A stretch of 64,000 nt of DNA from an uncultured Poribacteria bacterium (GCA_958296135.2 CATQHZ020000001.1:4192001-4256000), one strand, 5' to 3'. Numbered from the stretch's first letter, positions 48,000 to 57,469 are shown. Numbers and translations: made by a program. Notes: generated by a model not told the origin, from the letters alone.

Positions 48000-49361
48000 A
48001 TGCCAAAACTGATTGTCAAAAATTTCATTCATATCCGCGAGGCGGAAATCGACATGGACAAAAAGCTCGTCGTTTTTATCGGTGAACAGGCGAGCGGCAA
48101 AAGCACCCTTGCGCGGCTGCTCTACTTTTTCCGCCACGTCACCTACGCCCTCCGCAAATGGGTCTGGATGGTGAATTGGGAAGGCGAGCAGCGGCTCAGT
48201 TCAGCGTTCTATCACCACCTCGCGCAGCAATTCCGCCTCTTTTTTGGCGAACTAACGCGCCTCGGGCCGTTTGAGATGACGTATCACTATACCGAGGAGA
48301 GTTCCGTCACCATCGCTTTAACGGACGATGGGCAACTCAACATCACGCTACCCGCGCCTATGGACGAGATGAACGAACTTTACGGGGAGTATCAAGAAGA
48401 ACTGCGCGACGCGAAGGCGAAGTCTCTCAAGGAGGGCGATGCCCGAGAAACTACGTTTACCCCCGGCGAACGGATGCTCATTGAAATCTTCCTCGGGGCA
48501 GGGATTAGCAGCATCTCCGAACGGCTCTTCGGCACGTATCTCAGCAGCCTCTATATCCCGGCAGACCGGCAGATTGTCTCAAACTATCCCGATGCCTTCA
48601 AACGTGTCTTCTACGGCGGCATCAAAAGGGATATCTTTGAACGCGACATAGAACGCAACCCCGCACCCGCCGCGCAGAGCTACTTACTGTCGCGGCTCCT
48701 GGAGAAAAACGAGGAGTTCTTGCAAACCTTTAACGAGCAAGACTACCATGCCCTCCTTGCCGAACGAACAAGCGATGAGGATGACGATGTTGATGCCGCA
48801 CCGGTAGAATTCCTCATGGAGAAGATGGCGCGCATCCTCAAAGGCACTTACGGACCGGCGGACGACAAAAAATCGATGTTCAATCAGCCTACCGGCGAAG
48901 GCTCGGTGCCGTTACAGGCAGCTTCAGCCGGTGAACAGAACGCGCTCCGCCTCCTCCAAGACATCTTCTTCACCGTGCTATATGATGAAGGCACATTTCG
49001 CGTCATCGAAGAACCGGAGGCAAGCCTCTATCCAACCGCGCAGAAGGAGCTGATCGAGATTATCGCGTTGATGCTGAACACGGCGAAATGCCAAGTGGTG
49101 CTGACAACGCATAGTCCGTATGTGTTGTCCGTGCTTCAAACCCTGCTGCGTGCGAAGCAAGCAATACAAAATCAGCCTACCGCAGCAGACCGGATAGCCG
49201 CACTTGCACCTGAACGCTGTTGGCTCTCTGCGGAAGATATTGCTGTCTATCAGTTGAAAGAGGGCGCGTGTCATTCCTTGATAGATGCCGAGAGCGAAGA
49301 GATTCTCCGCAATCCGCTAGCGGCGTTATTGACAGCATTTTCGCTTGACATTTCGGCGTGA
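48000..49361 (+). CDS. ABC-type AAA_15/AAA_21 ATPase (AbiEii/OLD/PtuA-like)
   Basis: GEQASGKST, YIPADR, ASAGEQ, VIEEPE..LYP, TTHSPY. Confidence 0.85.
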   Translation: MPKLIVKNFIHIREAEIDMDKKLVVFIGEQASGKSTLARLLYFFRHVTYALRKWVWMVNWEGEQRLSSAFYHHLAQQFRLFFGELTRLGPFEMTYHYTEESSVTIALTDDGQLNITLPAPMDEMNELYGEYQEELRDAKAKSLKEGDARETTFTPGERMLIEIFLGAGISSISERLFGTYLSSLYIPADRQIVSNYPDAFKRVFYGGIKRDIFERDIERNPAPAAQSYLLSRLLEKNEEFLQTFNEQDYHALLAERTSDEDDDVDAAPVEFLMEKMARILKGTYGPADDKKSMFNQPTGEGSVPLQAASAGEQNALRLLQDIFFTVLYDEGTFRVIEEPEASLYPTAQKELIEIIALMLNTAKCQVVLTTHSPYVLSVLQTLLRAKQAIQNQPTAADRIAALAPERCWLSAEDIAVYQLKEGACHSLIDAESEEILRNPLAALLTAFSLDISA

Positions 49362-49510: not shown

Positions 49511-50140
49511 ATGAACAAAACCGTTTTCAATTTCATGACTCTCCTCTGCATCGGGGCACTCGTGTGCCTCATGGGTTGCGGAAGTAAGCGCACTTCGCCG
49601 CTTGCACAACAATCACCACCGCCGCCACTGCCCGATCTGCCCGACTGGGTAGATAGCCCACCGCAGGATGACGACGAATTTCTTTACGTTGTCGAATCCG
49701 GCGCATCCCGCGACCTGGGCCGCGCGCAACGAAAAGCGATCCAAAACGCGAGAGCCGCCCTCGCACTGAAAATCGAGGCAGCTGTCACCGTCCTCGTCAA
49801 AAGTTTTGAGGAAGAAGTGGGCGGCGACGCGGCGAGCGCGGAGGCCAATGGGCTCTTCGCCCAAATCTCGAAGACCGTGGCGGATCAGCGGCTCGTCGGC
49901 TCGAGCCCTGCCAAAGTCCATCGGCTTCAGAACGCAGATGGACTTAGCAACACCGTTTACGTCTTGATGGAACTGCCGACCGGCATGCTCGGGGCTCAGG
50001 CTGTTGACACTATCAGCCGGGATAGGGCGTTATACAACCGCTGGCGCGCTTCAGAGGGGTTCAAGGAACTTGAGCACGCTGTCAAGGAAAAACGTGCACA
50101 AGATGGCGAGGAACAACCAGAAACCGGGGCAACGCCGTAA
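49511..50140 (+). CDS. LPP20-like lipoprotein
   Basis: Lipobox LMGC; PDWV...A..KA...ARAALA pattern. Confidence 0.75.
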   Translation: MNKTVFNFMTLLCIGALVCLMGCGSKRTSPLAQQSPPPPLPDLPDWVDSPPQDDDEFLYVVESGASRDLGRAQRKAIQNARAALALKIEAAVTVLVKSFEEEVGGDAASAEANGLFAQISKTVADQRLVGSSPAKVHRLQNADGLSNTVYVLMELPTGMLGAQAVDTISRDRALYNRWRASEGFKELEHAVKEKRAQDGEEQPETGATP

Positions 50141-50192: not shown

Positions 50193-50963
50193 ATGGAGAA
50201 AATGCAACGCCTTTGCCTCCTTTTTATCCTCACGTTTCTGCATGTCGGATGTCAGCAGGCGAAAGTGAAAGCACCTTTTACTGCTACCGTGAAAAGGGCA
50301 AAAATCGCCTATCCGCAGTGGTTTTGGGCACCGCCACCCCGTCTTCCGTTTCCGACCGCGGTGGGTTACTCGGCTGTCTCACACTTCCATCCCGACAAGG
50401 CATTAGAAAATGCAACAGAAGACGGTATTGAGAGGCTAGCGAAATCTATCCATGTTCGCATCCGCGGCGAACGGAGCACTATCAACGGCAAACTGGTGCA
50501 ACAGTTTCAGGAAGAGACTGAGACCCGGGTCAAGGAAAACGTCCGGGAGGCACATGAAATCTTGGCAATCTATCAGGAAGAAGGATTGACGATGGTGCTG
50601 GTAGGAGCAAGCACCCAATCTCGACAACTATCCGCAAGCGTTACCGAGCCCAATGCCACTGTACCCGACTGGATAGGTGAACTTCCTCGGCATCGCGGCT
50701 ATTTCTATGCGCGCGGGCAAAGCGTCCTGAAAAATCGTCCGAAAACGGCGTGGGCGCAGGCAGAATATCAAGCGCGCATCGCGCTCGCCTTGACGGTAAC
50801 CGCCAGCGTCTCGCACCTCGAAAGATCCGCGCGGGGGCAAATTGACAAAGTCACTCGGACGTGCGTAGATTTAACGTTGAGGGGAATCCAGATCGTTGCG
50901 CGGTGGTATGATGCGGCGGAGCGTATCTGCTATGTCCTTGTCCGCGTCCCAATTAACGCATAG
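50193..50963 (+). CDS. Lipoprotein with two LPP20-like repeats
   Basis: Lipobox HVGC; PQWF and PDWI...AEYQARIALA repeats. Confidence 0.7.
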   Translation: MEKMQRLCLLFILTFLHVGCQQAKVKAPFTATVKRAKIAYPQWFWAPPPRLPFPTAVGYSAVSHFHPDKALENATEDGIERLAKSIHVRIRGERSTINGKLVQQFQEETETRVKENVREAHEILAIYQEEGLTMVLVGASTQSRQLSASVTEPNATVPDWIGELPRHRGYFYARGQSVLKNRPKTAWAQAEYQARIALALTVTASVSHLERSARGQIDKVTRTCVDLTLRGIQIVARWYDAAERICYVLVRVPINA

Positions 50964-51330: not shown

Positions 51331-53310
51331 ATGAAAACCTTTCTCATCTCACTTTTTGTCGTTTTACTTTGCGGTGCCCTCATCTTCCTCGGCACCACAG
51401 CCCTGTTCTCCCAAACCCGCCGCGGCATGAAAATCAGCGTCCGCACGAACACCGGCGAAGACATCGCCCTCTACAACGCCTCCTACGCGCTCGTCATTGG
51501 AAACGGAAATTACCGAAACGGCTGGGACCCGCTCCCCGGTGCCCTACAAGACGTGAAAGAAGTCGCCGAGGCACTCAAAACACACGGCTTCAACGTCACA
51601 CTCAAAACAGATCTCACCGCAGATGAATTTATGGACGCGTTACTGACGTTCGGGTTAGAGCACGGCGAAGACGAAAACAACCGTCTCCTCTTTTACTACG
51701 CCGGACACGGCTACACCCTGCCGCTCGCCAACGACCAGGAGCGCGGCTACCTCGTGATGATCGACGCGCCAGACCCGGACAGCGACAAACGCGGCTTTGT
51801 GCGAGCGAGCGTCAACATGGAGACGATCGTCGGGGAATCCAAGGCGATTCTCGCACGGCACGTGCTATTTCTGTTTGATTCCTGCTTCTCCGGCACCATT
51901 CTCAACGCCCGCGACCGGGTGAGACCCGAGAGCATTTCAGATAACATTCGGTACCCCGTGCGGCAATTCATCACCGCCGGCCGCGCGAACGAACCCGTGC
52001 CGGACCGGAGCGTTTTCAAGACAGCGTTCCTGGACCTCATTGAAGGCCGCGCCACCGATCCGTTCCGTGATGGTTACATTACCGGTACGGAGTTAGGAGT
52101 GTATCTGGTGAATCAGGTGCCGATATACAACCCGGCACAACATCCACAACACGGCAAAATCCGAGATCCGAAGTTAGATAAAGGCGATTTTGTGTTTGTG
52201 CTACCGCGGCGAAACACTGCCGAACTGCCTACCCTCGCAACCTTGAGCGTGACGAGCACGCCGAGCGGCGCGACCGTCTACGTTGCCGGTACCGCTATCG
52301 GCAAAACGCCCTTACGCGCCTATGCAATTGACACGGGGGTGCGGCGCGAGAAGCAGGTAGACATCGGCTTAGAACTTGCCGGTTACAAAAGCCGTGTGAA
52401 AAGCGTTACATTGACAGGTGGACAAACCCTCCCCTGGGATGTCCCCTTGGAACCTATGATTGCGCCGACGATTATTGGACAAGATGGCGCGGAGATGGTG
52501 CTGATTCCCGCCGGCGACTTTCAGATGGGCAGCAACGACAGCGAGGCAGAAGACTATGAAAAACCGGTGCATACCGTCTACGTGGATGCGTTCTACATGG
52601 ATAAATACGAAGTGACGAATGCGCAGTTCAAGGCGTTTGTCGATGCCAACCCGCAGTGGCAGAAGGACAAAATCCCTGACAAATACCACGATGGAAACTA
52701 TTTGGGTCACTGGGATGATAGTACTCTCAAGAGTTTCTTGGGGGAAGGGAACCAGCCAGTGGTGTATGTGAGTTGGTATGCGGCGATGGCGTATGCACAG
52801 TGGGCCGGCAAACGGCTGCCGACAGAGGCGGAGTGGGAGAAAGCCGCCCGCGGCGGGTTAGTGGGCCAGAAATATCCCTGGGGCAATCGTCCGCCGGATG
52901 GCACACAGTGTAACTTCGCTGATATCCACCTAGCCAACTTGAATTTCGAGGGGCTAGATTGGGCAGATGAAAGTGTGGACGATGGTTCCGCGCTGACTGC
53001 CCCTATCGGCCGTTATCCGGTCAACGGCTACGGCCTACATGACATGGCTGGCAATGTGTGGGAGTGGTGTCTTGATGAATATGATGAGACTTTCTATAGG
53101 CGTTCGCCGCGTCGGAATCCGCTCGCGGGGGAGATGCCCCGAAGGGAAGTGATTACTAATTACAGAAACGTTACAACCTCCCGCGTGTTGCGGGGTGGCA
53201 GTTGGTACAATACCGCGCAGAACCTGCGCGTCGCCAATCGCCTCAGCAATACGCCCTCGTACACGTTCAACGGCATCGGTTTTCGTTGTGCGAGGGCTGT
53301 TACCCCTTAG
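51331..53310 (+). CDS. Caspase-like (C14) peptidase - PEGA - FGE-sulfatase (CLec) protein; putative DGR target 1
   Basis: N-terminal hydrophobic signal; YYAGHG and FDSCFSG (His/Cys dyad); VTSTPSGA PEGA; FQMGS, RLPTEAEWE, GNVWEW, RGGSW...GFRC. Confidence 0.92.
   Translation: MKTFLISLFVVLLCGALIFLGTTALFSQTRRGMKISVRTNTGEDIALYNASYALVIGNGNYRNGWDPLPGALQDVKEVAEALKTHGFNVTLKTDLTADEFMDALLTFGLEHGEDENNRLLFYYAGHGYTLPLANDQERGYLVMIDAPDPDSDKRGFVRASVNMETIVGESKAILARHVLFLFDSCFSGTILNARDRVRPESISDNIRYPVRQFITAGRANEPVPDRSVFKTAFLDLIEGRATDPFRDGYITGTELGVYLVNQVPIYNPAQHPQHGKIRDPKLDKGDFVFVLPRRNTAELPTLATLSVTSTPSGATVYVAGTAIGKTPLRAYAIDTGVRREKQVDIGLELAGYKSRVKSVTLTGGQTLPWDVPLEPMIAPTIIGQDGAEMVLIPAGDFQMGSNDSEAEDYEKPVHTVYVDAFYMDKYEVTNAQFKAFVDANPQWQKDKIPDKYHDGNYLGHWDDSTLKSFLGEGNQPVVYVSWYAAMAYAQWAGKRLPTEAEWEKAARGGLVGQKYPWGNRPPDGTQCNFADIHLANLNFEGLDWADESVDDGSALTAPIGRYPVNGYGLHDMAGNVWEWCLDEYDETFYRRSPRRNPLAGEMPRREVITNYRNVTTSRVLRGGSWYNTAQNLRVANRLSNTPSYTFNGIGFRCARAVTP
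53182..53310 (+). other. Putative DGR variable region 1 with IMH-like 3' end
   Basis: Differs from the paralogue almost only at codon positions 1-2 of NNC/NNT codons; invariant GGTTTTCGTTGTGCGAGGGCTGTTAC 3' end. Confidence 0.75.
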
Positions 53311-53330
53311 TCCTTTACCTCTTTACCCCT

Positions 53331-53353
53331 TCTGATCTGCCTTGCAGATCAGA
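53331..53353 (+). promoter_or_regulatory. Hairpin/cruciform downstream of the putative VR
   Basis: TCTGATCTGC-CTT-GCAGATCAGA, 10-bp perfect stem 20 nt after the stop, no U-tract. Confidence 0.6.
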
Positions 53354-53466
53354 CCGGTATGGAGGGGGTACTTAATAAGACCTAACGGCCGGCCCGGCAC
53401 CTATTTTTCTGCGATAACCCCGCTTACTATGCGGTTTCGTCCTGCGAAGTTTTTTTAAGGATTGCT

Positions 53467-55095
53467 ATGAAAACCACGCGCCTCTCTCTATTTCTCATAT
53501 TCCTCATCTCCCTCACAACAACCGCGCACGCCGCCAAACCGGATTGGGTCAGCAATTTCGGCGTGTCCAAAAGGCATCCAGCACACAGTTATCTCGTCGG
53601 GTTCGGGAGCGCGCGGGGGAACGGTGCCGAATCACGCCAGATCGCCGCAGATAACGCACGCGCAGAGGTGTCTCGCCACATTGTCACAAATATCAAAAGC
53701 GTGATTTCCACGGGCGAGGCAGAGACAAGGCACGGTGTCTCCGAACATTTCAGCGCAACCACTCAAAGTTCCACTGCACTGCAACTGATGGGACTTTCGC
53801 TTGAGCACTACGCTGACCAGCATGCCACGTATGTCCTGGCATGGATTTCCCGCGCCGAGCTCAAGCGGCTCTATACGCAACGTGCCGTGGAGTTCCGCGA
53901 GAAAATCCGGCGGATCATAGCGGATGCCCACGCCGCAGAAAACGACGAAAAGCCCTCCCTTGCCGTGGAGAAATACCTGAGCACCGCGCCGCTCTACGAA
54001 GCGTTGAAAGAGGCGGAGACCATCTTGACGGTGGCAAAACTCTCCAGTAGGCGCGATTTGCAACTTGCAAGCGATGCCTTCGCCGAATTAGAAAAAGCCA
54101 CAAAGGGCGATTCCGGCGTGGGAGATACCCCCCTGATGTCGCACACCGAGGTGATGAACCGCGTCGAGAAACTTGTCTCAACCGCCGCAATCACTTCCGT
54201 TGATGACATCGCGCGGGCTGTCGTCTTTCAACTCTCAAAACAGATGAGTCACCTCACAGGCAAAGTGTTGCTGGTAGCCCCTACCTATCAGGATACGCAG
54301 ATGAATAGCCGTTTTTCGCGTGAATTCCGCGCCGCGCTGGAGACACAATTCGGACAAATCGGCAAGTGGCATACCGTGACTGAAAAGCATCGTTCCCGCG
54401 GAAACGTTCGTCCCCGTTCCGCGCAATTGATGCGCGATTGGACCAGAAGTGCGGGCGCGACGTTGCTGCTCTCCGGCACCTATTGGGAAAGCAGCGATGC
54501 AATCACCCTCCGGACGACGCTGCGCGATGTGAATACCGGTGCAGTCAAGGCAGGCACCGCAGTCACCTTCTCGCGTCTTACGGATATGGACTTCAAACCG
54601 CAAAATTGGCAGTCTGCCCTCATATCACAAAAAGCGTTCGCCGAAGGCGAATTCGTCAGTGGCGCGCTGCGGGTGGAAGTCTGGACAAACAGGCCGAGTG
54701 AGCATCCGCTTTATACCGAAGGCGAGACGATGACAGTCTCTGTCCGCGTCAATCAAGAGGCTTACATCCGCCTCCTCTATATCCTTGCCGATGGCCGGTA
54801 CACGCTCCTCTACGATAACTACTACATTGACGGGTCGAAGGTTAATCGCGTCGTTGAGATTCCGGAAGAGTTTGAGTGTGCAGAGCCGTTTGGCGCAGAA
54901 TTGCTTATCGTCGCGGCGCGCACCGATAAGTTCCCTGCCATCGATACCTACGAAAGCGATGGGTATTCATTCTTGAAGGCAGAAGATGCCGAACAAGCAG
55001 CTCGCGCTTTTCGCGGCATGAAAAAGAAGCAGCAACGTCCCGAGGCCCAACAGAGTGAAGCGCGCCTTGTGATTACAACCCTCAGCAAAAAGTAG
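53467..55095 (+). CDS. Secreted protein with an LPP20-like N-terminus and C-terminal DUF4384-like domain
   Basis: Signal peptide AHA-AKPDWV; A..NARAEVS; C-terminal VEVWTNR...Y.EGE...YIRLLYI...PFGAE. Confidence 0.7.
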   Translation: MKTTRLSLFLIFLISLTTTAHAAKPDWVSNFGVSKRHPAHSYLVGFGSARGNGAESRQIAADNARAEVSRHIVTNIKSVISTGEAETRHGVSEHFSATTQSSTALQLMGLSLEHYADQHATYVLAWISRAELKRLYTQRAVEFREKIRRIIADAHAAENDEKPSLAVEKYLSTAPLYEALKEAETILTVAKLSSRRDLQLASDAFAELEKATKGDSGVGDTPLMSHTEVMNRVEKLVSTAAITSVDDIARAVVFQLSKQMSHLTGKVLLVAPTYQDTQMNSRFSREFRAALETQFGQIGKWHTVTEKHRSRGNVRPRSAQLMRDWTRSAGATLLLSGTYWESSDAITLRTTLRDVNTGAVKAGTAVTFSRLTDMDFKPQNWQSALISQKAFAEGEFVSGALRVEVWTNRPSEHPLYTEGETMTVSVRVNQEAYIRLLYILADGRYTLLYDNYYIDGSKVNRVVEIPEEFECAEPFGAELLIVAARTDKFPAIDTYESDGYSFLKAEDAEQAARAFRGMKKKQQRPEAQQSEARLVITTLSKK

Positions 55096-55197
55096 AAAAC
55101 GCCGAACAACCACAGCGCGAGGGCCTGTCTCTCACGATCGTCCCTCAAGACAAAAACTGAAGGAAAAAACACAACGTTCATCCGGTATCGAAAAACC

Positions 55198-55226
55198 TTG
55201 CTTTTTAACACGCAACATGCTAGAAT
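55198..55226 (+). promoter_or_regulatory. Sigma70 promoter with a very short leader
   Basis: TTGCTT-17 nt-TAGAAT; ATG 10 nt after the -10 box; near copy at 57470-57498. Confidence 0.6.
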
Positions 55227-55236
55227 ACACGTCATC

Positions 55237-57381
55237 ATGAAGCCCTTCTTCATCTCTCTCATTATCATAGCCCTCTGTAGTGCCGCGATTTTCATCGGCG
55301 CGCCAGACCTGTTCCCCCAAACCCGCCGCGGCATGAAAATCACCGTCCGCACAAACACGGGCAAAGAAATCGAACTCTACAACGCCTCCTACGCGCTCGT
55401 CGTCGGAAACGGCAATTACACAAACGGCTGGGACCCGCTCCCCGGCGCAACTCGCGACGTGCAGGAAGTTGCAGCGGCTCTCAAAACACACGGCTTCAAC
55501 GTCACACTCAAAACCGACTTGACAAAGAACAGGTTTGAGGATGCGTTTGAGACGTTCGTCCAGAACGGAAAGAACAAGGATGCCCGACTCCTTTTCTACT
55601 ACGCGGGACACGGTTACACCGAGGAACTCGCCGATGGCGAAAACCTTGGATACCTCGTCATGGTAGACGCACCTTTGCCAAAAAGCGGCGGCATCGACGG
55701 TAGCAAAAGTGTGGACATGGAATCGCTGGTGACACAATCACGGCGGATGCAGTCACGGCATGTGCTGTTTGTGTTTGACAGTTGTTTCTCTGGCACGATT
55801 CTCAATACGCGCAGCCAGATTCTGCCGCCTTATGTCTCAAACAACGTCAAATATCCCGTGCGACAATTTATCACCGCCGGCCGCGCGGATGAAACCGTGC
55901 CGGATCACAGCGTTTTTAAGCAGGCGTTTCTGAACCTCCTTGAGGGCCGCGCGCCTGAACCTATTAAGGACGGTTACGTTACCGGCGAGGAGTTAGGGCT
56001 CTATCTAAAAACCGAAGTCCCGAAATATAACCGCGGGCAAAACCCGCAATATGGCAAAATCAACAACCCGAAACTGAACCAGGGCGATTTTGTGTTTGTG
56101 CTGCCCCAGGAGGCTCCACCACCCCCCGGCGAAGTCTTATCCACAACAGCAACGTTAAACGTAACAAGCACGCCCAGCGGCGCGACGCTCTATCTTGATG
56201 GAATCGTCATCGGGAAAACGCCGCTGCGCGGCCATCAGATTGACACGGGGGTGCGACGCGTCAAAAAGGTTCAGGGCCGCTTGGAATACGATGGTTACAA
56301 AAGTCGAACAACAACCTTGACACTGAAGGGTGGGCAAAGTGTGCCTTGGAGGGTTCGGTTAGAAAAGTTTGCCACCATCGCAACCTTGCAGGTAACCAGC
56401 ACACCGAGCGGGGCGAGTGTCTATATTGACGGGGCCGCCGTTGGGAACACACCGTTACGCGGCCATGAGGTTGACACGGGAACAAAGCGAGAAAAGCGGG
56501 TAGAACTTGGCATAGAACTTTCCGGTTACAAAAGCCAAGTGAGAGGTGTAACGCTGAAGGGAGGACAAGCGGTGCCGTGGGATGTCCAATTGGAAAAACA
56601 GGCAACTCCTCTGCAAGGCGCGCACACATCAACGATTATTGGGAAAGATGGCGCGGAGATGGTGCTGATTCCCGCCGGCGACTTCCAAATGGGCAGCAAC
56701 GACAGCGAGGCAGACGACGATGAAAAACCGGTGCATACCGTCTATGTGGACGCGTTCTACATGGATAAATACGAGGTGACGCATGCGCAGTTCAAGGCGT
56801 TTGTCGATGCCAACCCACAGTGGCGGAAAGACCGGCTCCCTGACAAATACCATGATGGAGACTACCTGTCTGAGACAGGGAACAGTTGGGAAGGCAACTA
56901 TCCGGTGGTGTCTGTGAGTTGGTATGCGGCGATGGCGTATGCGCAGTGGGCCGGCAAACGGCTGCCGACAGAGGCGGAGTGGGAGAAAGCGGCGCGCGGT
57001 GGCTTGGTAGGCAAGAAATACCCGTGGGGGAATACAAAGGCAAACTACAGCATGGGTGGTCGCTACACCAAGCCGGTTGGCCGTTATACACCGAATGGTT
57101 ACGGTTTATACGACATGGCTGGTAACGTGCAGGAGTGGTGTCTGGATGCGTATGATAGCGATTTCTATAGGCGTTCGCCGCGTCGGAATCCGCTCGCGGG
57201 GGAGATGACCCGAAGGGAAGTGATTACTAATTACAGAAACGTTACAACCTCCCGCGTGTGGCGGGGTGGCGGTTGGGCCAATCCCGCGCTGTACCTGCGC
57301 GTCGCCGATCGCGACGACGGTGCGCCGCCGGACGCGAACGGCTACGTCGGTTTTCGTTGTGCGAGGGCTGTTACACCTTAG
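55237..57381 (+). CDS. Caspase-like (C14) peptidase - 2x PEGA - FGE-sulfatase (CLec) protein; putative DGR target 2
   Basis: Paralogue of 51331-53310; YYAGHG and FDSCFSG; two VTSTPSGA repeats; start MKPFFI at 55237. Confidence 0.92.
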   Translation: MKPFFISLIIIALCSAAIFIGAPDLFPQTRRGMKITVRTNTGKEIELYNASYALVVGNGNYTNGWDPLPGATRDVQEVAAALKTHGFNVTLKTDLTKNRFEDAFETFVQNGKNKDARLLFYYAGHGYTEELADGENLGYLVMVDAPLPKSGGIDGSKSVDMESLVTQSRRMQSRHVLFVFDSCFSGTILNTRSQILPPYVSNNVKYPVRQFITAGRADETVPDHSVFKQAFLNLLEGRAPEPIKDGYVTGEELGLYLKTEVPKYNRGQNPQYGKINNPKLNQGDFVFVLPQEAPPPPGEVLSTTATLNVTSTPSGATLYLDGIVIGKTPLRGHQIDTGVRRVKKVQGRLEYDGYKSRTTTLTLKGGQSVPWRVRLEKFATIATLQVTSTPSGASVYIDGAAVGNTPLRGHEVDTGTKREKRVELGIELSGYKSQVRGVTLKGGQAVPWDVQLEKQATPLQGAHTSTIIGKDGAEMVLIPAGDFQMGSNDSEADDDEKPVHTVYVDAFYMDKYEVTHAQFKAFVDANPQWRKDRLPDKYHDGDYLSETGNSWEGNYPVVSVSWYAAMAYAQWAGKRLPTEAEWEKAARGGLVGKKYPWGNTKANYSMGGRYTKPVGRYTPNGYGLYDMAGNVQEWCLDAYDSDFYRRSPRRNPLAGEMTRREVITNYRNVTTSRVWRGGGWANPALYLRVADRDDGAPPDANGYVGFRCARAVTP
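57253..57381 (+). other. Putative DGR variable region 2
   Basis: Gap-free alignment to VR1 with 26 substitutions in 30 codons, 25 of them at codon positions 1-2. Confidence 0.75.
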
Positions 57382-57469
57382 TCCCTTACTCCTTTACCCC
57401 TTCTGATTTGCTGTGCAGGTAGTGGCATGACATACAATGGCATTTCCAAAATCGGAGATGAAAATGCCC

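Follow-up and report, generated by a model that had tools for sequence, protein, structure and literature searches.

Diversity-generating retroelements (DGRs) with targets that join a caspase-like domain to a C-type lectin (CLec) domain are already described. In cyanobacteria, DGR variable proteins with an N-terminal orthocaspase and a C-terminal CLec occur, remote targets included (Vallota-Eastman et al. 2020, PMC7517822, in the part of the text available). In Thiohalocapsa PB-PSB1, a DGR target carries a caspase-like CHAT domain together with TIR, and loci that are incomplete or remote depend on functions supplied in trans (Dore et al. 2024, PMC10907252, likewise in the part available). Here, we analyze a window of 64,000 nucleotides (nt) (G000:C1:4192001-4256000) from the genome of an uncultured Poribacteria bacterium (G000; assembly of 4 contigs, with 94.7% marker completeness). 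The window contains two paralogous genes, copy 1 and copy 2, that combine caspase (Peptidase_C14) and PEGA domains with a CLec of the formylglycine-generating enzyme (FGE) type. The 3′ ends of both genes are, with very good support from sequence comparison, variable regions (VRs) written by a DGR. The cassette that should accompany them, with a reverse transcriptase (RT), the accessory protein Avd, and a template repeat (TR), is missing from the assembly.

As in the cyanobacterial system, a caspase-family peptidase is fused to a diversified C-terminal CLec, many paralogous remote targets are dispersed, the VRs are at 3′ termini, and cis elements are invoked (PMC7517822, available part). In the same part of that paper, however, RT and TR are present in the genomes and most of the proteins are predicted to be cytosolic, whereas the window genes have a hydrophobic N-terminus, PEGA, lipoprotein and protease neighbors, and a poribacterial host with no RT or TR in its assembly. 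What the window shares with Thiohalocapsa PB-PSB1 is the placement of FGE-type CLec VRs on proteins that also have a caspase-like proteolytic domain. There, as far as the available text extends, a matching TR and RT are found at another site of the genome or among structural variants, and the systems are read as intracellular STAND/VMAP conflict systems, whereas the window proteins look extracytoplasmic (PMC10907252).

At the level of the fold, TvpA of Treponema denticola (PDB 2Y3C) has the same FGE-sulfatase fold with the VR in the C-terminal ligand-binding segment (E of 1.2e-8 for the whole window protein and 3e-7 for its C-terminal part). On the other hand, TvpA, a lipoprotein, lacks a protease domain, and the FGE domains of the window are much closer to true FGEs (PDB 2Q17, 6MUJ, 1Y1E; E 2e-43), with which they share the domain family (Pfam, 230 bits). 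The "C-x4-C" stretch belongs to the solved enzymes only; the window domain has a 3-residue deletion and no Cys there. In the DGR of Bordetella phage BPP-1, the target is recognized through an initiation of mutagenic homing (IMH) segment and a downstream hairpin or cruciform. As in BPP-1, the GC-rich 3′ end of the VR differs from that of the TR, and a short inverted repeat comes after the VR. In the window, a conserved spacer (CTTTACC...TTTACCCCTT) precedes the hairpin, which is found ∼20–33 nt after the stop and whose stems covary from genome to genome.

A literature search, made without most subscription journals and supplements, found nothing relevant on DGRs or on FGE genes in Poribacteria. 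A preliminary description of this DNA had overstated the novelty of the architecture, since orthocaspase–CLec and CHAT–CLec targets of DGRs are in print (PMC7517822, PMC10907252, both in their available parts); supplementary tables may list still closer architectures. The unusual part is the missing cassette across chromosome-level Poribacteria genomes. By these observations, targeted hypermutation of the DGR type extends to Poribacteria, which are dominant uncultured symbionts of sponges. Chromosome-level genomes with freshly homogenized VR families but no RT also offer a route to study how a DGR cassette is gained, used, lost, or acts off the chromosome, and a variable lectin fused to an exported caspase-like protease would be a candidate for ligand-targeted proteolysis at the symbiont surface.

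Variable 3′ ends of the two caspase-PEGA-FGE genes

The two genes, their VRs, and the elements that follow them are these:

51331..53310 (+): copy 1 gene, 659 aa, with hydrophobic N-terminus, Peptidase_C14, PEGA, and FGE-type CLec (open reading frame [ORF] and Pfam)
55198..57381 (+): copy 2 gene, 727 aa from a TTG start (ORF and Pfam)
53182..53293 (+): VR of copy 1 (span homologous to the TR), with variable columns 53189-53275 and a framework equal to the VR majority of the genome at 73/73 columns
57253..57364 (+): VR of copy 2, framework 72/73, with one non-adenine change at 57260 (RVLRGG to RVWRGG)
53278..53303 (+): IMH-like 3′ segment, 26 nt, identical in both copies
53311..53353 (+): conserved spacer and perfect hairpin (hairpin at 53331-53353), from comparison with the targets of relatives
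57402..57424 (+): degenerate remnant of the target hairpin after copy 2 (alignment and DNA fold)

The 3′ ends of copy 1 and copy 2 align without gaps. In the 90 coding nt that precede the shared GGTTTTCG... segment (53188-53277 vs. 57259-57348), 26 nt differ, with 25 of the differences at codon positions 1 and 2 and one (53256) at position 3. The probability of at least 25/26 at positions 1 and 2 is 3.7e-4 (p = 2/3). Counted from the difference table, an A is present in one copy at 19 of the 26. The last 161 nt, stop included, contain 27 differences, of which 16 affect codon position 1, nine position 2, and two position 3. The ∼95 nt upstream of the variable part (53093-53187) contain a single difference, at 53137. 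Identity is 59/60 in the block just upstream of the VR and ∼55%–85% per 60-nt block elsewhere between the two genes. Both copies have flanks with 1–2 differences in ∼145 nt (∼99% identity) around a VR that is 29% divergent, which implies at least one rewriting after the last homogenization of the flanks. The gapless alignment with its 26 differences, their codon positions and adenines, the single upstream difference, the identical 3′ segment, and the post-stop hairpin that is degenerate after copy 2 had all been given in the preliminary description and are reproduced here by alignment and DNA folding.

Canonical cassettes are present in three relatives from the same family as G000 (G004, G009, and G024). 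Each contains an FGE target with its VR, a bAvd gene (PF22296, 83 bits), an RT of ∼355 aa (RVT_1, 84 bits), and a downstream TR rich in AAC/AAT. The mismatches between the TR and the cis VR fall on TR adenines in 18/19 cases in G004 and 16/18 in G024; in G009, the cis VR is 3 nt longer and the ungapped count breaks down after 18 adenine mismatches. We took as TR-A columns those with A in at least two of these three TRs (31 of 112 columns). In the window, 22 of the 26 differences between the copies occur on the 31 TR-A columns and four on the 81 others (p = 1.7e-12). Three of these four have an A in the TR of one relative and only 53189 (T/G) is truly non-adenine. By proxy, via the TRs of relatives, the variation is thus confined to template adenines, as expected if the C-termini are DGR-type VRs in FGE-type CLec folds, the reading first proposed for them. 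The AAC/AAT-rich template that had been deduced from the two copies alone also closely resembles the real TRs of related Poribacteria.

The same pattern extends beyond the pair. Among six VRs of G000 at two loci, 28/31 TR-A columns vary vs. 15/81 of the others. In four VRs of G000, at two loci 2.8 Mb apart, 72–73 of the 73 strict non-A framework columns match the majority of the genome, with upstream flanks that are unrelated. In both window copies, the VR is at the 3′ end of the ORF and within the CLec/FGE-type fold.

The second locus, on the minus strand (L076, G000:C1:1412476-1423822), contains five FGE genes in tandem, and two of these encode two FGE domains each. The VRs of this cluster have the framework of the window, followed by a different repeated element (GACCCTAACCCCCGGAGGG... 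hairpin) instead of the DGR spacer and hairpin.

In the relatives, the VR ends with ...GCGAGGGC where the TR has ...GCGAAGAC. After copy 1, the hairpin has a 10-bp stem and a 3-nt loop, and the similarity between the two copies extends past the stop as far as this hairpin. The DNA fold of the 61 nt after the copy 1 stop gives −14.5 kcal/mol, and the copy 2 equivalent −3.9 kcal/mol. The same spacer and hairpin, in the same position and with covarying stems, follow the cis VRs of seven relatives and four VRs of a congener, so that the IMH and downstream hairpin proposed in the preliminary description correspond to an element that follows bona fide cis targets. This putative DGR cis element (IMH-type 3′ end plus hairpin) is complete at copy 1. 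Copy 2, with its degenerate hairpin and the non-adenine L-to-W change in RVLRGG, appears to have already ceased to be a target of homing. The coincidence with TR-A columns, the variation among the six VRs, and the spacer and hairpin common to the bona fide targets of relatives together make a DGR origin of both VRs very well supported.

The missing cassette and the last rewriting

In G000, an RVT_1 profile search has no match at E ≤ 0.001 (best 16.1 bits), and neither Avd profile (PF05635, PF22296) matches. With three RTs and three Avds of the relatives, tblastn reaches at best E 0.18 (E 0.56 for the best RT). The small contigs C2–C4 contain no RT. With the three whole cassettes, blastn returns only VR-like matches and one 69-nt terminator-like match in G000. 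A position-wise scan of the genome for framework plus adenines finds no TR; the highest A occupancy, 20/39, is that of copy 1 itself, while controls give 31–35/39. A DNA search for related 3′ ends retrieves the tandem FGE cluster (C1:1.414-1.422 Mb) and a few other sites of G000, every one of them coding and none TR-like, so that the noncoding A-rich copy which such a search had been predicted to uncover is not there. Two genomes of the same genus (the genus comprises three genomes with G000) yield no RT, Avd, or TR either. The claim that both genes are remote targets of a template in this genome is, therefore, not sustained for the assembly or for these two genomes; the wider expectation of a TR and RT in the genome or in close relatives fails for G000 and its congeners and holds for the same-family genomes G004, G009, and G024. 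The framework of G000 was sought in 11 TRs extracted from other Poribacteria and is present in none (best 65/73). In public scans with an RT alignment, the best matches have 56% identity in metagenome contigs and 44% in viral contigs, none of them from this lineage.

Three candidate traces in G000 were rejected. A 24-residue tblastn match to the RT (C1:1414005-1413934, E 6.9), in a gap of 1 kb that follows a VR of the 1.41 Mb cluster, is taken as chance, since the blastn with whole cassettes finds nothing there. The 69-nt match (C1:3522430-3522498) is unconvincing as a cassette relic; it covers the terminal hairpin/terminator part and is located at the end of an unrelated gene. Readings of A at 53242-53273 in sample contigs do not betray a hidden TR, being all explained by the paralogous VRs of G000 itself.

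Across the phylum, a full-length RT (at least 49% identity) is found in 12 of 176 Poribacteria genomes, with 0/3 in the genus of G000. At least four VR-like copies are present in seven of 41 genomes, and the RT is missing in four of these seven (G000, G001, G002, and G007). In G007, a decayed DGR (L268, G007:C1:2592193-2595354, at ∼2592954-2593860) has kept the VR, hairpin, TR, and post-TR element, with the RT cleanly deleted and avd truncated after ∼85 codons and fused to the pre-TR sequence. A 1-nt deletion frameshifts the tip of its VR; with a gap allowed, 21/23 TR/VR differences are at TR adenines. The RTs of G084 and G064 contain an in-frame TAA, and G135 has an RT fragment only. In the relatives, the cassettes are chromosomal and next to a target. 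Those of G004 and G009 occupy different syntenic sites, where other genes stand in the cassette-free G000, and Transposase_31 genes border the G009 cassette.

Immediately 3′ of the TR, there is a conserved structured element of ∼160 nt (L156–L166, L179; model R1), and of its 28 predicted pairs, 13 show compensatory changes. G009 yields 27 matches to it at E ≤ 1 (25 at E < 1e-7), several of them directly downstream of remote VRs and Transposase_31 genes, so that it may equally be a repeat/terminator module or a DGR RNA priming element. Its covariance model gives only a partial match in G000, and the element is not found in the two same-genus genomes. No Rfam family appears at E ≤ 0.1 in three cassette loci (L057–L059) or in C1:3517000-3528000.

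The VRs of G000 and of the congener (loci L048, L073, L074, and L079, the last syntenic to the window genes) differ at six framework columns. Four of the six are fixed synonymous states (CGG/CGC, GGT/GGC, CTG/TTG, and TGT/TGC; 6/6 vs. 8–9/9 VRs), which indicates that, once the species had split, the VRs of each genome were written from a TR specific to that genome. Repeated homing from one genome-specific TR yields such concerted states beside adenine columns that are not homogenized; plain gene conversion would not. On the comparison of these sequences, the DGR is one that has been active in the G000 lineage, and recently. The region C1:1238000-1268000 of G002 was considered as the orthologue of the window locus and rejected, because it is a different FGE cluster.

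For the present state of the VRs, one sample (four runs, X4–X7, as Logan contigs) contains 97% of the words of the window and is probably the source of the G000 assembly; runs X1–X3, with 5%–6% of the words, were excluded from the depth comparison. Exact contigs across the copy 1 VR have depths of 19.4 and 38.2 vs. 20.9 and 41.7 in the adjacent unique contig (X6 and X7), and the contig across the copy 2 VR 119.8 vs. 113.2 for its flank (X4). Other letters at VR positions are accounted for by the paralogues of G000. The assembled VR alleles, thus, look clonal in the contigs of this one sample, from which rare variants are dropped, and they give no hint of continuing variation.

We regard it as rather probable that the VRs are orphan DGR targets, written by a lineage-specific avd-RT-TR cassette that has since been lost, with the sequences of the binding sites now fixed. 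A DGR would have written the ∼95-nt C-terminal segments by adenine-specific mutagenic retrohoming, and the lineage-specific template would also have rewritten four or more further FGE genes at a distance of 2.8 Mb. The cassette would then have disappeared from the genome, as opposed to being left out of the assembly. The variable tip of the FGE fold may bind a variable ligand (a host, phage, or neighbor surface), and the ligand-bound tip may bring the caspase-like protease to the ligand or activate it, as in the ligand-directed proteolysis suggested in the preliminary description; with the cassette gone, the lectin repertoire would be frozen. The decay of cassettes in G007, G084, G064, and G135 is evidence for loss. 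Several points weigh against this reading. Both same-genus genomes are without RT, yet each has its own recently homogenized framework, so that each lineage would need its own recent and independent loss; both observations would follow together from a cassette located on an unbinned replicon. Copy 1 is undecayed, with its complete framework, perfect hairpin, and intact IMH-like segment, and flanks with so few differences mean that the last rewriting was very recent. The assembly is in 4 contigs and 94.7% complete. Since Logan contigs omit rare variants, minor VR alleles are possible, and the four runs represent a single sample.

It is possible, though we hold it to be rather unlikely, that the VRs are live remote targets, with a cassette outside the binned assembly (on a plasmid, a phage, an unplaced contig, or in an assembly gap) that rewrites them in trans, so slowly that consensus contigs do not show it. 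The absence of RT from all three genomes of the genus, despite the genome-specific homogenized frameworks of G000 and its congener, fits such targets, as do the perfect cis elements and undecayed framework of copy 1 and the completeness of 94.7% in 4 contigs. The cassette also looks mobile, given its different insertion sites and Transposase_31 flanks, and Thiohalocapsa provides documented cases of DGR loci that act in trans or are incomplete (PMC10907252, available part). The cassettes of the relatives are, however, chromosomal and adjoin a target, contigs C2–C4 have no RT, the depth of the VR alleles equals that of their flanks in the sample contigs, and no close RT appears in viral or metagenome contigs. 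Further, single-contig Poribacteria relatives reach only 94%–96% marker completeness, so that the score of G000 may already be essentially complete. Along related lines, we suggest tentatively that a mobile DGR cassette, and not a stable chromosomal part, services chromosomal genes for exported receptor-proteases and lectins in sponge-symbiotic Poribacteria. It would either be extrachromosomal, shared in the poribacterial community of the sponge, and still rewrite these genes in trans, or be "hit-and-run." In the last variant, the cassette would be acquired, would use its lineage-specific template to rewrite as many as a dozen targets or more, and would then be deleted, leaving a strain-specific surface repertoire frozen. 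Very unlikely, in our view, is the possibility that the VRs are ancient fossils, passed down from an ancestor of the family that carried a DGR, the lineage of G000 having seen no DGR activity thereafter. The patchiness of the RT clade and the absence of RT from four of the seven genomes rich in VR-like copies would suit fossils; the fixed synonymous states that separate G000 from its congener, a framework identity of 72–73/73 among VRs with unrelated flanks, and nearly identical flanks around the strongly divergent VRs of the window would not. An origin without any DGR, through divergence of paralogues and diversifying selection on a lectin loop with gene-converted flanks, is likewise very unlikely. 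The RGGSW-to-GFRC region is variable in FGE-like proteins generally, and conversion between the copies does occur, as patches of 93%–98% identity in other parts of the FGE domain show. But conversion would homogenize the variable columns too, the differences fall where TRs found independently have adenines, the synonymous framework sites are fixed per genome across unlinked loci, and the DGR-specific downstream hairpin element is present.

Domains of the proteins and neighboring genes

The domains of the two proteins are distributed as follows:

51331..51414 (+): N-terminal hydrophobic segment of copy 1 (aa 1–28), read from the sequence and conserved in homologues
51484..51918 (+): caspase (C14) domain of copy 1, aa 52–196, Pfam 65.5 bits; the PADLOC "caspase" model also matches
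51706-51708 and 51883-51885 (+): putative catalytic residues of copy 1, His126 and Cys185, in AGHG and DSCFSG motifs
52237..52455 (+): PEGA domain of copy 1, aa 303–375, Pfam 43.1 bits
52489..53295 (+): FGE-sulfatase (CLec-type) domain of copy 1, aa 387–655, Pfam 230 bits, without the catalytic Cys pair
55390-55818 (+): Peptidase_C14 domain of copy 2
56383-56601 (+): best of the two PEGA stretches of copy 2
56653-57366 (+): FGE CLec of copy 2

A hydrophobic stretch of about 25 residues opens both proteins. In copy 1, it is read as a signal peptide or membrane anchor, and the proteins are presumably exported. In copy 2, there is an alternative ATG start at 55237 (MKPFF...). Peptidase_C14 scores 65.5 and 68 bits in the two copies (cut-off 21.4), with coverage of profile positions 3–142 of 233 only. 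His126 aligns in AGHG with the identical motif of MALT1 and, among 12 aligned poribacterial homologues (both window copies included), the AGHG His is invariant (12/12) and the DSCFSG Cys occurs in 10. We take His126 and Cys185 to be the catalytic dyad of the C14 domain, which is apparently intact in both copies. The preliminary description had proposed an exported C14 protease with an intact His/Cys dyad; the domain, both motifs, and the hydrophobic N-terminus stand, and export is what such an N-terminus suggests. In the two other homologues (L088 and L089), Arg replaces the presumed catalytic Cys (DSRFSG), and some members of the family may be pseudo-proteases. The PEGA match of copy 2 reaches 84.3 bits over its two stretches. 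At least 10 further Poribacteria genomes have kept the caspase-PEGA-FGE architecture, and this also indicates the phylum of the organism.

In an alignment of the window FGE domain to solved structures (6MUJ, 2Q17, 5NXL, and 6S07), the deletion replaces the C-x4-C of the enzymes (LCHDSYC), and the VR occupies exactly the former active-site loop of the FGEs. Without the Cys pair, the domain is not an FGE enzyme, but a lectin-like FGE fold as in TvpA, its more distant match. A full-length AlphaFold model (12-row alignment; mean pLDDT 44.4, pTM 0.39) is unusable and no reading rests on it.

The genome contains 24 FGE-sulfatase domains (those at 52489-53295 and 56653-57366 included), and CxxxxC is present in the last 62 residues of none of them (0/24). 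From this lack of the Cys pair, the whole expanded "FGE/SUMF1" family of G000 may be made of variable, lectin-like proteins and not of sulfatase-maturing enzymes.

Around the two genes, the following are found:

49511-50140 and 50193-50963 (+): two LPP20-type lipoprotein genes (ORFs and Pfam, the first below the cut-off), with a Cys-containing lipobox-like N-terminus read from the sequence
53467..55095 (+): presumably exported LPP20/DUF4384 protein between the copies, 542 aa (ORF and Pfam), with 89.7% nt identity to the syntenic gene of L079
57437..59797 (+): downstream matrixin (M10)-TPR protein, with a HEFGHAIGLWGH motif (Peptidase_M10, 33.4 bits) and a long TPR array

All these neighbors have signal- or lipoprotein-like N-termini, and the matrixin-TPR protein would be a second exported protease of the cluster. 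Further upstream (48000-49361, +), an ABC-type ATPase matches the PADLOC AriA model over its full length (114.5 bits); no AriB-like partner is present among the upstream ORFs of at least 120 aa. The AriA-like ATPase is in conserved synteny beside caspase-FGE genes in L079 (84.5% nt identity). There, in the congener, three caspase-PEGA genes (L079, 2844-14866) encode proteins of 948, 986, and at least 1021 aa, all of which have a tandem pair of FGE domains. With two single-FGE genes in the window vs. three double-FGE genes in L079, the number of domains is fluid at the caspase-FGE locus.

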